A DNA stretch of 37,499 nt from a virus. Location of the stretch: IMG/VR virus record IMGVR_UViG_3300045988_057146, positions 1-37,499 of that record. One strand, written 5' to 3'. The notes beneath the pieces were generated by a model. The model ran no database searches. It had not been told where the DNA came from and was given only the letters and a program-made list of their open reading frames with translations. The number at the start of each line of letters is the position of its first letter. The first letter of the stretch is position 1. Positions 22,729-33,886 of this stretch are shown piece by piece. Both the position numbers and the translations under genes were made by a program.

Positions 22729-22804
22729 TGGTTGCAGGAGAAGGATTTGCACCGTTCGACCTCTAGCTAATAAGACTAGTGAGCTACTACTGCTCTATCC
22801 TGCT
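22729..22804 (-). tRNA. Non-canonical tRNA-like gene, anticodon UAU (reads AUA)
   Basis: Hand-folded 76-nt cloverleaf. Acceptor AGCAGGA/TCCTGCA has 6 bp plus an A1xA72 mismatch. U8 is present. D stem is GAGC/GCTC (A11:U24). Anticodon stem is CTAGT/GCTAG with loop CTTATTA, giving anticodon TAT at 22772-22770. T arm is GAA(C)GG-TGCAAAT-CCTTC. A73 and an encoded CCA follow. Odd features are a bulged C in the T stem, G55, a D loop without GG, and U37. Confidence 0.6.
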
Positions 22805-30259: not shown

Positions 30260-30490
30260 TTATAGAAATAACATTGCATACGATTTACCCAAACAAGCTA
30301 TTGAAATAAGTAGAATCACGATTGTTGCGAATAACATAATGTTTATTCCGATTGTGATTCTTTTTTGATACCTTTGTTCTCTAATAAGTTCTTTTTCTTC
30401 CTTGCTTAAATGTATTCGTTTTGGATTAAATGGATAAATGTTCAATTCCACTTCTTCATCTTGAATACTGTTCATTCTTATATCTTCCAT
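30260..30490 (-). CDS. Small C-terminally membrane-anchored protein
   Basis: AGGAGA lies 5 nt before the ATG. The C-terminal TM helix is GINIMLFATIVILLISIACL. Confidence 0.5.
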   Translation of the reverse strand: MEDIRMNSIQDEEVELNIYPFNPKRIHLSKEEKELIREQRYQKRITIGINIMLFATIVILLISIACLGKSYAMLFL

Positions 30491-30492
30491 GT

Positions 30493-30744
30493 TTATCTCC
30501 TAAAGCTTTTTTTGAACTCAGGAGCACACTTCAAGAATGTTTCTGTAGGAATCACCTTTTGATGAATATTTCTTTGTGTAAACGAATCTTCCCATTCAGT
30601 TCCTGTTTCTTTTTTGTAAGCTTCTTTTACTGCCTTCATAATACTGTAGCAGTAGTTTTTTTTCGTTTGTGGCTTGTATCTATCTAAGTCATAAAGTGCG
30701 ATTATATCGTCTTTATTTAGAAGTGCCTTATATTCAATTATCAT
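30493..30744 (-). CDS. Hypothetical small early protein (possible DNA-binding)
   Basis: GGAGGTGA lies 6 nt before the ATG. A DUF3173-like impression only. Confidence 0.4.
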   Translation of the reverse strand: MIIEYKALLNKDDIIALYDLDRYKPQTKKNYCYSIMKAVKEAYKKETGTEWEDSFTQRNIHQKVIPTETFLKCAPEFKKSFRR

Positions 30745-30913
30745 ATTCGTTCACCTCCATTCTAGATTCGCAAGTGTTAATTTGATTTACTTCTTGTAAA
30801 TCTCTCACATTCAGTTGATTAGCAATTTTTTTTGCTTCTTCACTATCATGTGCTTCAACTTCGAACGTAACATTTGCAGTTACGTCGAAGGTTACGAAAT
30901 ATGTTCTAGTCAT
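30734..30913 (-). CDS. Hypothetical small protein (59 aa)
   Basis: Start trimmed to the ATG at 30913, after AAGAGGTGA. Confidence 0.45.
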   Translation of the reverse strand: MTRTYFVTFDVTANVTFEVEAHDSEEAKKIANQLNVRDLQEVNQINTCESRMEVNEYDN

Positions 30914-31034
30914 GCTTCTCACCTCTTTTCGATTCATCTAAGATACAAGCGATATATCCTAGATAAAATTCTGAAAGCTCATAGCCTTTCTTTTGTAGTT
31001 CGCCTAAGGCTTCAAAAATTCTCTTGTCTAGTAT
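30906..31034 (-). CDS. Possible 42-aa ORF starting at ATA just downstream of the ribozyme
   Basis: GGAGGTGA, then 4 nt, then ATA 31034-31032. Translation (M)LDKRIFEALGELQKKGYELSEFYLGYIACILDESKRGEKHD. No in-frame ATG/GTG/TTG is available. Confidence 0.3.
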   Translation of the reverse strand: MLDKRIFEALGELQKKGYELSEFYLGYIACILDESKRGEKHD

Positions 31035-31046
31035 TGTTTCACCTCC

Positions 31047-31118
31047 ATGACCTGTCTCATCAGTGCTAGTAGGTCGTCTCTAGCAGACTAGCCTATTGGC
31101 TAGTTTCGACTAATTCAT
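31047..31118 (-). ncRNA. Hammerhead ribozyme, type II topology
   Basis: Minus strand reads GUC-GAA-[ACUAGCC AAUA GGCUAGU]-C(cut)-[UGCUAG ...10 nt... CUAGCA]-CUGAUGA-GAC. All core nucleotides are present: C3-A9, G12-A14, A15.1:U16.1 and C17. Helix III is 7 bp, helix I is 6 bp, and helix II is 3 bp plus a possible AUGA/UCAU extension. Confidence 0.75.
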
Positions 31119-31391
31119 AAATGGTTCTGCATTTTGATTGATTCGCTCAACTTGATTCAATTTGAATAAGTAAGCTTTTGCTAAGAAGAAATTGTTCTCA
31201 ACTTTTTCTTCACCATTTGTGTCTGTGTACTTTTTGGCTTTAGGTTTCCATAACTTTGTACAAGTTACTGCATGCTCACCTTTCTTAACTTTGAATCCCA
31301 TTTCTTTCCATTTTTGGAAAGTGTGGAGAGGTTCAAACTCTCCCATTCCTAATGCCTTTTTTTCATTTTGGATAATTTGTTCGTTTCTCAT
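31110..31391 (-). CDS. First early gene; small protein with an ArdC-N-like ssDNA-binding motif
   Basis: Start trimmed to the ATG at 31391, 8 nt after GGAGGA. HTFQKWKEMGFKVKKGEHA resembles the TFxQAxxLGGxVRKGEKG motif of ArdC-N/DUF1738 (from memory; weak). Confidence 0.4.
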   Translation of the reverse strand: MRNEQIIQNEKKALGMGEFEPLHTFQKWKEMGFKVKKGEHAVTCTKLWKPKAKKYTDTNGEEKVENNFFLAKAYLFKLNQVERINQNAEPFMN

Positions 31392-31409
31392 TTCTTGTAT
31401 CCTCCGTTT

Positions 31410-31446
31410 AGTACTCATTTGTACTTTACGAGTACATTATAGTACT
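31410..31446. promoter_or_regulatory. Two operator palindromes AGTAC-N6-GTACT
   Basis: AGTACTCATTTGTACT (31410-31425) and AGTACATTATAGTACT (31431-31446) are spaced 21 bp centre to centre. The second overlaps the -10 of the leftward early promoter. Confidence 0.65.
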
Positions 31447-31464
31447 TTTGAATGACATTATCAA
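31436..31464 (-). promoter_or_regulatory. Early (lytic) promoter
   Basis: Minus strand has TTGATA (31464-31459), a 17-nt spacer, then TATAAT (31441-31436). Confidence 0.65.
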
Positions 31465-31483
31465 GTGTTTTTTGTCCTTTTAA

Positions 31484-31511
31484 TTTACAAGTTTATTCTT
31501 TGTGATATTAT
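31484..31511 (+). promoter_or_regulatory. Repressor promoter
   Basis: TTTACA (31484-31489), a 16-nt spacer, then TATTAT (31506-31511) with TG at 31503-31504 as an extended -10. Confidence 0.5.
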
Positions 31512-31533
31512 GAATATAGAGGAGGTAAAAAAT

Positions 31534-31908
31534 TTGACTATAGGTGAAAGAATAAATGCGATTAGGTCTAGCTTGAACCTAAGCATGGAGAAATTCGGAA
31601 AGAAGATTGGTATAACTCGTAGTAGTGTCAATTCACTTGAAAAAGGTGTAAACAATCCTAGTGACCAAACAATCAAATTAATATGTAAAGAATATAATGT
31701 TGATTACTTTTGGTTAACTGAAGGTAAAGGCAATATGTTTCTAGAATTGCCGGATAACACTATTGATGAATTAATTGATGAATACCAAATTAACCCAAAT
31801 CAAAAGCCACTTATAAAGGCTTACTTAAAATCAAGCGAAGAAACGAAGGAAAGGTTATTAGATTTCATTTATGGAATCATTAAGGAATTAGACAATGAAA
31901 ATCAATAA
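31534..31908 (+). CDS. XRE-family (CI-like) repressor
   Basis: The TTG at 31534 lies 8 nt after GAGGAGG and gives MTIGERINAIRSSLNLSMEKFGKKIGITRSSVNSLEKG, a classic HTH_XRE. The longer track ORF is rejected. Confidence 0.8.
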   Translation: MTIGERINAIRSSLNLSMEKFGKKIGITRSSVNSLEKGVNNPSDQTIKLICKEYNVDYFWLTEGKGNMFLELPDNTIDELIDEYQINPNQKPLIKAYLKSSEETKERLLDFIYGIIKELDNENQ

Positions 31909-32500
31909 AAAAAGGCGATATTCAATCGCCGTTGCTTTAGTATTATGTTTAGGCTTATCTATGCCTGTAAATGTATATGCTTTTAGTAATGAAGTTCAGT
32001 ATTTAACTACATCAGAAGCAACTAAAGAATATAAAATTAAAAAGAAGGACATGAAAGCTCTTGTTAAGGTAATGAAAAAGCTAGGTGTTCCTAAGAAATT
32101 TATTGATATTACAGATTATAAAAAAGATGTATTTACTATAAATTATCTTGAAAATAGCTATACTGCTACCGTTAAAAAAGGAAAGGTAAAACTTGTTAAT
32201 CAAGGCGATTTCATTTTGTATAAAAAAGGTGAGGTATATCAAAAGATTACTAATGCATATATTACAAATTCAGATAAAATAGGTATTCATGAATCTGTAG
32301 AAAATGCAGTAAATGAAAATGTAGGGGCGCAATGTACATTCCAAGATTATAAAGAATGGGATTATAGAAGAGCCGAGAACACCTTTACAATTAGAGGACA
32401 AGCCGAAGCAAACGGAACTACATACAACTTTGAAGTGAGAGCTAGATGGGATAGAATGCACTCACACCCTATAACAATAGATTCGGTTACATTGCAATAA
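31895..32500 (+). CDS. Secreted / surface protein co-transcribed with the repressor
   Basis: Signal peptide MKINKKRRYSIAVALVLCLGLSMPVNVYA. It overlaps the repressor stop, and AAGGAA lies 7 nt upstream. Confidence 0.65.
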   Translation: MKINKKRRYSIAVALVLCLGLSMPVNVYAFSNEVQYLTTSEATKEYKIKKKDMKALVKVMKKLGVPKKFIDITDYKKDVFTINYLENSYTATVKKGKVKLVNQGDFILYKKGEVYQKITNAYITNSDKIGIHESVENAVNENVGAQCTFQDYKEWDYRRAENTFTIRGQAEANGTTYNFEVRARWDRMHSHPITIDSVTLQ

Positions 32501-32723: not shown

Positions 32724-33818
32724 CTATTTGTTTTTCTCCATAAATTTGACAATGCCTTTGTCTGCTTGTGGTAACCAATGAGCGTATACTGAAAGAACAG
32801 TATCAAGGTTATCACCTAATCTTTTCGCAATGTCATACACTGAGAAATTCACTGTTCCATCTGTAACCATATTATTAATCATGTAGCTTGCACATGAGTG
32901 TCTTAAATCGTGTATTCTTATAATAGGTATCTGCTCATTCCGTTGTAGCTTGATATTCGTTCTCTTAATCGTTTCATTCATTTCTTTTCTAACTGAGCTT
33001 CGATAAAAAGGAACTGTCATACCGAATATATAGTCATTATCATTTGCGTTCATATTCTCTTTAAAAGCTTTATATTCATTAGATAGAAACTTCGGCATAG
33101 TGATTAATCTATAACTGTTATTTGTTTTGGGTGTTGTAGCCTTTCTTAACGTGTCTGCCCATGTCTTTTGTATATTAATAGTATTGTTCACTAAATCAAT
33201 ATCCTTCCACTGTAAAGCTAATGTTTCACCTATTCTCATGCCCATGTAGAATTGATTCATAAATAATAAATGATATACAGGTTTATTTTCATTTGCTATG
33301 AATTTGTTAAACTGCTCAACAGTCCAATACATCATGTCTTTCTTTTTTTTGTTTGGGTCTTTCTTCAAATCAATTTTATTACATGGATTTGCTTGAATAT
33401 ATCCTTGTCTTACTGCATAGTTCAATACTGCTCTGAATTTGGTATAATAGTTAAGTACTGAATCAAATGACATTGATTTCATTAATTTATTAATAACTTT
33501 TTCTATATTGCTTGCAGTGAGCTTTTTAACTTCACACTCTCCTAGCTCATCTTCCCAAACTTTCAATATTGCTTTCTGCGTTAGGTATGTACTTTCCTTA
33601 ATCCTTTTTTCACTGTATACTTGATATGAATAAGATAGTTGATTAAATGTGATTGTCGCATTTGGTTCTTTTAGATTCTCTTTAAAAAGAATCTCGGCTT
33701 TTATAGCGTCCTTCTTTTTTTCAAAACCACGCTTCTTATATTGCTTGACCTTTCCATTCAATTTATATGAACCGTAATACATCCATTTGCCTGTTGTTTC
33801 ATCTTTCTTGACTGCCAT
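32724..33818 (-). CDS. int: Tyrosine recombinase / phage integrase
   Basis: The ATG at 33818 lies 6 nt after AAGAGGTG. The N-terminal arm-binding-like region is KDETTGKWMYYGSYKLNGKVKQYKKRGF. Also contains RIHDLRHSCAS and LSVYAHW (catalytic Tyr). Confidence 0.9.
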   Translation of the reverse strand: MAVKKDETTGKWMYYGSYKLNGKVKQYKKRGFEKKKDAIKAEILFKENLKEPNATITFNQLSYSYQVYSEKRIKESTYLTQKAILKVWEDELGECEVKKLTASNIEKVINKLMKSMSFDSVLNYYTKFRAVLNYAVRQGYIQANPCNKIDLKKDPNKKKKDMMYWTVEQFNKFIANENKPVYHLLFMNQFYMGMRIGETLALQWKDIDLVNNTINIQKTWADTLRKATTPKTNNSYRLITMPKFLSNEYKAFKENMNANDNDYIFGMTVPFYRSSVRKEMNETIKRTNIKLQRNEQIPIIRIHDLRHSCASYMINNMVTDGTVNFSVYDIAKRLGDNLDTVLSVYAHWLPQADKGIVKFMEKNK

Positions 33819-33886
33819 TTCTTGCACCTCTTTTTTATCATCATACACAAGAAAAAGGATAAAAAAAAGGCATAATTCATGAAAGA

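Follow-up and report, generated by a model that had tools for sequence, protein, structure and literature searches.

A complete type II hammerhead ribozyme in a phage early operon and its linkage to the small open reading frame downstream

The viral sequence IMGVR_UViG_3300045988_057146 from IMG/VR (positions 1 to 37,499, analyzed over its full length of 37,499 nucleotides [nt] and called the window here) contains, on the minus strand at 31110-31049, what is by its sequence a canonical, complete type II hammerhead ribozyme. The element lies between an ArdC-like gene, the first of the early operon, and an open reading frame (ORF) of 42 amino acids (aa) that starts with AUA. The element adds a well-supported example to a class already known, for which no function in phages has yet been proven. 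Taking the evidence jointly, we think it likely that this is a genuine hammerhead of the early (lytic-side) operon, one that would cut co-transcriptionally, uncouple the cistrons, and give the downstream messenger RNA (mRNA) a fixed, structured leader with a 5'-hydroxyl (5'-OH) end. The fold, its conservation, and its placement come from the sequence and from comparison with relatives, and from them we infer the mechanism.

The minus strand of 31118-31040 reads AUGAAUUAGUCGAAACUAGCCAAUAGGCUAGUCUGCUAGAGACGACCUACUAGCACUGAUGAGACAGGUCAUGGAGGUG, in exact agreement with the letters quoted in a preliminary description of the region. Every invariant core position of the hammerhead is in place, namely CUGAUGA, GAA, the A15.1:U16.1 pair, and the GUC triplet (31088-31086), with the cut predicted between 31086 and 31085. 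The parts follow one another in the type II permutation (5' strand of helix II, GAA, helix III hairpin, C17, helix I hairpin, CUGAUGA, 3' strand of helix II), and both ends of the ribozyme are in helix II. Helix I has 6 base pairs (bp) and a 10-nt loop, helix II is open and consists of the 3 bp of GUC/GAC, and helix III has 7 bp and a tetraloop; all three carry compensatory changes in relatives, and they surround a core with C3 U4 G5 A6 N7 G8 A9, GAA, A15.1:U16.1, and a nucleotide other than G at position 17. All of the sequence-level defining features of type II hammerheads that we checked are therefore present, and catalysis is predicted. The preliminary description had placed the stop codon, core, cut, and helices correctly, and it had rightly set the element between the stop codon of the ArdC-like gene on its 5' side and the Shine-Dalgarno sequence (SD) of the ATA-started ORF just beyond. 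Its span of 31047-31118 was 8 nt too long at the 5' side, because it had overlooked a pseudoknot and included an extension of helix II that is unsupported; the ribozyme proper is 31110-31049.

The pseudoknot, a hallmark of type II, comprises 5 bp between GACCU (31075-31071) in loop I and AGGUC (31053-31049), and it thus has the form expected of a class member, in which loop I pairs over 4 bp or more with the stretch just 3' of helix II. Most type II hammerheads are defined by this tertiary contact, a Watson-Crick pairing of loop I with the tail, and it is required for rapid cleavage at physiological Mg2+ (PMC3088659). In the wider family of phage hammerheads described below, a pairing of this kind that has 5 bp or more and starts no further than 2 nt from helix II is found in 178 of 227 members (78%), compared with about 14 of 227 (about 6%) after loop shuffling. 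The pairing also covaries across the family, where it appears as UGACC/GGUCA, UGGUCU/AGACCA, UGGCU/AGCCA, and UGCCC/GGGCA.

A covariance-model search, which had been proposed as a check on the original identification, gave a narrow pass. The Rfam model RF02276 (Hammerhead_II) scored 38.2 bits against a gathering threshold of 37, with a match that spans 31111-31046 end to end and has, under laxer filters, E values of 2.1e-6 (401 nt) and 2e-4 (whole window). In the default Rfam scan of the whole window at gathering thresholds, a tRNA was the sole match and the hammerhead was absent, because of the speed filters that the laxer settings relax. Model R2, which we built from 15 phage hammerheads of like architecture with the window and its near relatives excluded, gave with filters off a single match in 37.5 kb, the 31110-31049 element (74.7 bits, E ~1e-18). 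A strict pattern for the arrangement had one match in the window and none in 100 dinucleotide-preserving shuffles, and the minimum free energy (MFE) fold had z = -3.0. With a complete core, a score above the curated Rfam threshold, a high score from an independent family model, and covariation in four helices, the assignment to type II holds. Searches of the window for a second hammerhead or another known ribozyme (Rfam at E <= 1, our parser, and models R1 and R2 without filters) found none, Rfam found no Pistol ribozyme in it, and a blastn search of 30400-31950 against 50,697 phage records returned no match.

We assembled the family by two pattern scans of viral contigs, each with at least 120 matches; one pattern fixed the pseudoknot, and the other fixed only helix II and the core. 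The parser recovered at least 227 distinct type II hammerheads among the matches listed, 209 of them with enough flank for layout counts. Seventeen members, including that of the window, could be aligned without gaps, and in this alignment standard pairs make up 97.3% of cells and both partners have changed in 16 of 22 pairs, counts that are supportive rather than unbiased because of the pattern-fixed core, the stem minimum, and the shared data set. None of 500 shuffles of the alignment reached the observed values, and slid controls were 23-48% paired. Within helices I to III all cells (100%) are paired and 13 of 16 pairs have changed on both sides, including six of the seven pairs of helix III and all six of helix I; for the pseudoknot the figure is three of six. 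The middle pair of helix II covaries between U-A and C-G. Among the variants of helix I are G-U pairs, which are compatible only with RNA of the minus strand.

Close relatives tell with which neighbor the ribozyme is inherited. A search with the ArdC-like protein found 23 IMG/VR contigs (loci are numbered L001 onward), all 23 of which have a hammerhead. In the 22 close relatives (L001-L022), the hammerhead is followed in every case by the leader GGUGAAACAAUA and then by an ORF of 41-42 aa (22 aa in L015). A search with the small ORF gave 30 loci with at least four different upstream sequences, and in all 30 the hammerhead is directly upstream and the first codon is ATA. In all, more than 50 related loci were fetched, and the hammerhead sits directly 5' of the AUA-started ORF regardless of the upstream gene. 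Because the small ORF always adjoins the hammerhead while the upstream gene varies, we conclude from these comparisons that the element is inherited with the downstream cistron and not with the ArdC-like gene.

The close lineage contains 21 distinct hammerhead sequences, in all of which the core bases are invariant. Two pairs of helix III switch together, from C-G to U-A and from U-A to A-U (15 versus 38 loci), and the remaining variation falls mostly in loops, pseudoknot strands, and tail, apart from two single-sided changes in helices III and I. In 47 of 53 close-lineage loci an additional U stands between A9 and G10.1; the window and L007 are among the few that do not have it. The hammerhead of the distant relative L023, which lies upstream of a GTG-started ORF, is fully diverged: its helices I and III are different, but its pseudoknot is the same.

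The preliminary description had put its emphasis on the ArdC-like gene upstream. If the element belonged to that gene, the ribozyme would form the 3' end of a short, hairpin-protected message, and any effect downstream would be incidental. Such a role would suit the overlap of the ArdC-like stop codon with helix II, the retention of helix III as a 3'-terminal hairpin, and the recurrence of anti-restriction genes beside ribozymes, as with ardA and hammerheads (PMC3088659) and with the ArdC-like gene and two Pistol ribozymes of L023. It sits poorly with the linkage just described: in L004 and L008-L011 another gene intervenes between the ArdC-like gene and the hammerhead, the ArdC-like gene being directly followed by an SD, and all 30 loci found with the small ORF keep the hammerhead in front of it despite at least four different upstream contexts. 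We therefore consider this explanation unlikely.

The positional layout of the wider family also points downstream. In 56.5% of the 209 hammerheads (among the matches listed), helix II is followed at 16-30 nt by an SD-preceded start whose ORF has 30 codons or more, compared with 4.9% of random positions in the same loci; in the window the distance to the AUA is 19 nt. The stop codon of an ORF of at least 50 codons lies at -12 to +45 of the hammerhead start in 79% of the 209 (among the matches listed), against 26% for random positions, with the window at -2. The stop offset has a sharp peak at -3/-2, which accounts for 102 of the 209 (among the matches listed), so that the stop codon directly adjoins helix II or shares one base with it. 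The window fits this modal layout, the G of its TAG being position 11.3. Earlier literature describes hammerheads qualitatively as "flanking" small phage ORFs (PMC3088659, PMC6155905).

It is also conceivable that the structure acts without cleavage. The flanks ACC.AUUUAUGA and UCAUGGAGGU would then pair and hide the SD of the AUA-started ORF until upstream ribosomes open it (translational coupling), or the whole would be a plain stabilizing fold. In the window the flanks can indeed form a 10-bp helix (-9.0 kcal/mol) that covers the SD, and the MFE fold of 31125-31040 (-27.4 kcal/mol, z -3.0) extends helix II across it. The relatives argue otherwise. Their flanks differ (ACAAAUUAG, UUCAAUUAG, or AAAGUAU upstream; AGGUCAAAAAGAAAG downstream), any duplex between them is weak (-1.9 to -7.1 kcal/mol) and takes other registers, and it is absent from the AAAUUAG/AGGUCAAAAAG variants. 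The duplex also partly overlaps a strand of the pseudoknot, which is the conserved, covarying interaction, and a core that is strictly invariant across very divergent stems is expected from catalysis and not from a mere hairpin. An explanation without cleavage thus seems to us quite improbable. The AUGA/UCAU extension of helix II in the preliminary description fares no better, for it partly overlaps the same pseudoknot strand and is not conserved in relatives. Given the weakness and shifting register of the flank duplex in those relatives, we rejected both the extension and sequestration of the SD as conserved features, and we regard the extension as accidental to this genome.

That the element is an inactive relic or a functionless chance motif is scarcely credible: its Rfam score barely clears the gathering threshold, its cleavage is predicted from sequence alone, and some published hammerhead-like candidates are inactive (PMC3088659), yet the shuffles never matched the strict pattern, the independent model scored it highly, its perfect core is kept in more than 50 fetched loci with compensatory changes, and its layout is that of about 200 other phage hammerheads.

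Our preferred reading, a self-cleaving element that serves the cistron behind it, would work as follows. Transcription from the putative promoter at about 31464-31436 would let the 62-nt element fold, with the pseudoknot docking helix I against helix II, and the RNA would cut itself after C17. Upstream of the cut this would yield a monocistronic ArdC-like mRNA of about 340 nt, stop codon included, whose 3' end is the helix III hairpin with a 2',3'-cyclic phosphate. The downstream product would begin with a 5'-OH flush on the helix I hairpin, followed by the SD 2 nt past the pseudoknot tail, the AUA ORF, and the rest of the operon; because both pseudoknot strands sit in this fragment, the helix I hairpin could remain knotted to the tail. 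Cleavage would make decay and translation of the downstream genes independent of the upstream gene, and the hammerhead would be a natural, host-independent insulator or processing site that supplies a constant structured leader. Given that the ribozyme is inherited with the gene behind it and that about 200 unrelated phage hammerheads share its layout, such a module is the most economical reading of the data.

Several points weigh against this reading. Both the cleavage of this element and its transcripts are predictions, and the RF02276 score is just 1.2 bits over the threshold. The relative L001, with the extra U and an AU-rich helix III, goes undetected by Rfam at E <= 1, which implies that AU-rich members of the lineage escape standard annotation. 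The patterns used to collect the family prescribed the core and, for some members, the pseudoknot or helix II as well, and the parser accepted only stems of 4 bp or more, so that the pairing is partly there by construction; in addition, many family contigs stem from a single metagenome data set and are related by descent. The flank helix that the window can form partly overlaps a pseudoknot strand. Collins et al. reportedly found in 2007 that RNase J1 of Firmicutes degrades the 5'-OH product of the glmS ribozyme, and by analogy cleavage could destabilize the downstream mRNA here unless the flush 5' hairpin protects it. Finally, folding must compete with translation, because a ribosome terminating at the UAG would cover helix II and half of helix III, and a 30S subunit on the SD would overlap the pseudoknot.

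The 42-aa ORF itself is conserved, with a ratio of nonsynonymous to synonymous substitution (dN/dS) of 0.14 in frame, and the other frames contain stops. Its start appears to be the AUA, 5 nt after a strong SD. The frame is closed by a TAG at 31082-31080, with no canonical or common near-cognate start before the AUA, and the SD-spacer-AUA block GGUGAAACAAUA is invariant in all of the related loci, more than 50 of which were fetched. Pfam and PHROGs assign no function to the small ORF or to its three downstream neighbors. AUA initiation is very rare in bacteria. Non-AUG starts are not enriched after hammerheads (ATG 116, GTG 18, TTG 13 among the matches listed), which makes the AUA start peculiar to this lineage.

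Elsewhere in the window we observed an atypical tRNA-like gene (22732-22804, minus strand) that scores 48.8 bits with the Rfam tRNA model and was not found by ARAGORN. Its anticodon loop, CUUAUUA, would present the anticodon UAU, which reads AUA. The gene encodes its CCA end and has an A1-A72 mismatch and U37; its T stem is bulged and carries the loop UGCAAAU. Upstream of the gene, just past a terminator-like hairpin (22850-22821), there is a TAATAAT box. The gene hardly varies among 28 contigs, and the carriers of both this gene and the AUA ORF all belong to the same phage lineage.

A broader proposal may be framed for the class as a whole, and we advance it tentatively, with doubt well outweighing belief. 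Phage type II hammerheads might be portable 5'-leader modules, placed to the nucleotide between stop codon and SD, whose self-cleavage is required for downstream expression through insulation and a knotted 5'-OH leader. In this lineage, the invariant block of hammerhead and GGUGAAACAAUA would then be needed for AUA initiation, perhaps together with the tRNA-like gene and its UAU anticodon.

The closest known systems are the prophage and phage hammerheads of Perreault et al. 2011, which carry the same pseudoknot, flank prophage genes including the anti-restriction gene ardA, and cleave in vitro and in Escherichia coli (PMC3088659). These elements (RF02276) share with that of the window the core, the permutation, the contact between loop I and tail, and the habitat, a phage early region near an integrase with small genes and an anti-restriction neighbor, which is ardA there and ArdC-N-like here. 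In contrast, the window element is AU-rich, barely passes Rfam, occurs as a single copy and not in gene-flanking arrays, is tightly linked to one AUA-started small ORF, and is known here from sequence alone. Three type II hammerheads in phage-like regions of Desulfovibrio vulgaris cleave in vivo, as detected by cyPhyRNA-seq (PMC8782182); they are of the same class and lie in a phage-like setting with small hypothetical and helix-turn-helix genes, although the host phylum and the sequences are different.

Likenesses in mode of working extend further. The synthetic hammerhead insulator RiboJ raises and standardizes downstream expression in E. coli (PMC6206723), and there, too, a hammerhead just 5' of the ribosome binding site removes variable upstream RNA and leaves a constant hairpin leader, which frees downstream expression from its context; the linkage of the window hammerhead to the ORF behind it suggests the like. 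RiboJ, however, was engineered from a type III satellite-RNA hammerhead with an added hairpin and is used after promoters, not between cistrons; the analogy would thus be one of working and not of family membership. RNase III processes the early RNA of phages T7 (between its early genes) and SP82 by cuts between cistrons, which leave hairpin ends and alter the stability and translation of single cistrons. Those sites need a host enzyme, whereas the RNA of the window would cut itself and leave a 2',3'-cyclic phosphate and a 5'-OH. The glmS ribozyme is likewise a self-cleaving RNA in a Firmicutes 5' leader, with a 5'-OH product that sets the fate of the mRNA, but it depends on a metabolite and down-regulates its own gene through RNase J1, and we saw no hint of a ligand for the window element. 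Pistol ribozymes (RF02679) have a different fold from the hammerhead and occupy equivalent intercistronic slots in L023. There, on the plus strand (473-542, 874-944, and 1222-1295), the ArdC-like gene has a Pistol ribozyme on either side (66.4 and 62.0 bits), and the type II hammerhead comes after one further gene. Equivalent slots in such early operons are therefore filled by different self-cleaving classes.

Bacterial and phage hammerheads have been known since 2011, including type II elements near integrases and anti-restriction genes in prophages, and their function is still listed as an open question (PMC3088659, PMC6155905, PMC6765202), as the preliminary description had said. By itself the window element leaves this functional picture unchanged, being one more well-formed member in the expected habitat. 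What goes beyond the literature consulted is the nucleotide-precise layout of stop codon, hammerhead, and SD, the linkage to the downstream cistron, and the conserved AUA-started ORF. The stop codon that abuts helix II, the SD right after the pseudoknot, and the co-inheritance with the downstream gene argue for service to the downstream cistron, which, if true, would explain why RiboJ works and why mosaic phage genomes keep such elements. The window also offers a clean single-copy test case, with one ribozyme about 340 nt from a putative promoter and between two small genes, and natural variants are on hand: with and without the extra U after A9, two versions of helix III, two of the tail, and four upstream contexts.

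Table 1. Positions of the ribozyme parts and of neighboring features in the window
Feature	Positions	Strand	Remarks
Integrase	32724-33848	-	
XRE repressor	ends at 31908	+	divergent from early promoter
Putative early promoter, TTGATA-17 nt-TATAAT	31436..31464	-	about 340 nt upstream of the predicted cut; consensus match only
ArdC-N-like gene, first of early operon	31110..31418	-	102 aa from first ATG; stop TAG 31112-31110
Helix II 5' strand GUC (11.3-11.1)	31110-31108	-	pairs with GAC 31056-31054; G31110 is also the last base of the upstream TAG
Core G12 A13 A14 (GAA)	31107-31105	-	invariant in 17/17 aligned family members and all 21 distinct close-lineage sequences
Helix III ACUAGCC / AAUA / GGCUAGU, A15.1 to U16.1, 7 bp	31104-31087	-	A31104:U31087 pair present
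C17	31086	-	predicted scissile bond 31086/31085; invariant in close lineage; C in 221/227 family members
Helix I UGCUAG / 10-nt loop AGACGACCUA / CUAGCA, 6 bp	31085-31064	-	sequence, fold, and family covariation
Pseudoknot 5' strand GACCU, in loop I	31075-31071	-	complementary to AGGUC 31053-31049
Core C3-A9 CUGAUGA	31063-31057	-	invariant in family alignment and close lineage
Helix II 3' strand GAC (10.1-10.3)	31056-31054	-	pairs with GUC 31110-31108
Pseudoknot 3' strand AGGUC	31053-31049	-	begins at first nt after helix II
SD GGAGGUG	31046-31040	-	2 nt after pseudoknot, 5 nt before AUA
42-aa ORF, AUA start (ILDKRIFEALGELQKKGYELSEF...)	30906..31034, AUA 31034-31032	-	uncalled in source assembly

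The window represents essentially the whole genome of a temperate phage, probably a gut phage of Firmicutes type, the pointer to the host coming from the terminase alone: its nearest matches are a human-faecal phage (49.5%) and then Clostridioides difficile phages (about 45%). Other encoded proteins include an ERF recombinase, a NinB-like protein, a tail tape-measure protein, and an Amidase_2 endolysin. Genome contigs scanned with the ArdC-like protein and with a hammerhead-specific DNA pattern gave no match either way. A metagenome contig with the same genome (37.7 kb, L271) has a gap of 196 nt in its gene calls at the hammerhead and the AUA ORF.

The ArdC-like product matches Pfam ArdcN (E 8.5e-7) and the anti-restriction protein family PHROG 7245 (E 7.7e-8). 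The first ATG of the ORF (31418) has no SD, and the ATG at 31391 is preceded by GGAGGA and would give 93 aa; this is the start used by the source assembly (L271). The putative promoter agrees with the consensus at 11 of 12 positions, the best match in the 28.5-32.7 kb region. Repeated AGUAC/GUACU motifs at 31405-31450 (minus strand) overlap the -10 box and the start of the early transcript, and from their sequence they look like operator half-sites for the divergent XRE repressor. We considered helix III as a possible terminator and rejected it, given that there is no U-tract and that our scan found no terminator-like site at the hammerhead.

Other members of the wider family show two further arrangements. 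Dense arrays with about one type II hammerhead per small gene occur in L165 (about 10 in 6 kb), L054 (six), L147 (five), and L033, L215, and L229 (four each). In a separate subgroup (L025, L032, L058, L074, L094, L121, L136, and L143), the hammerhead lies 8-25 nt after a promoter-like ATTATACCAC box and is followed not by an ORF but by a conserved, structured-looking stretch, CGUCCCGCC...GAGGCGAAUCAUGGUAG..., which may be a ribozyme-processed non-coding RNA.

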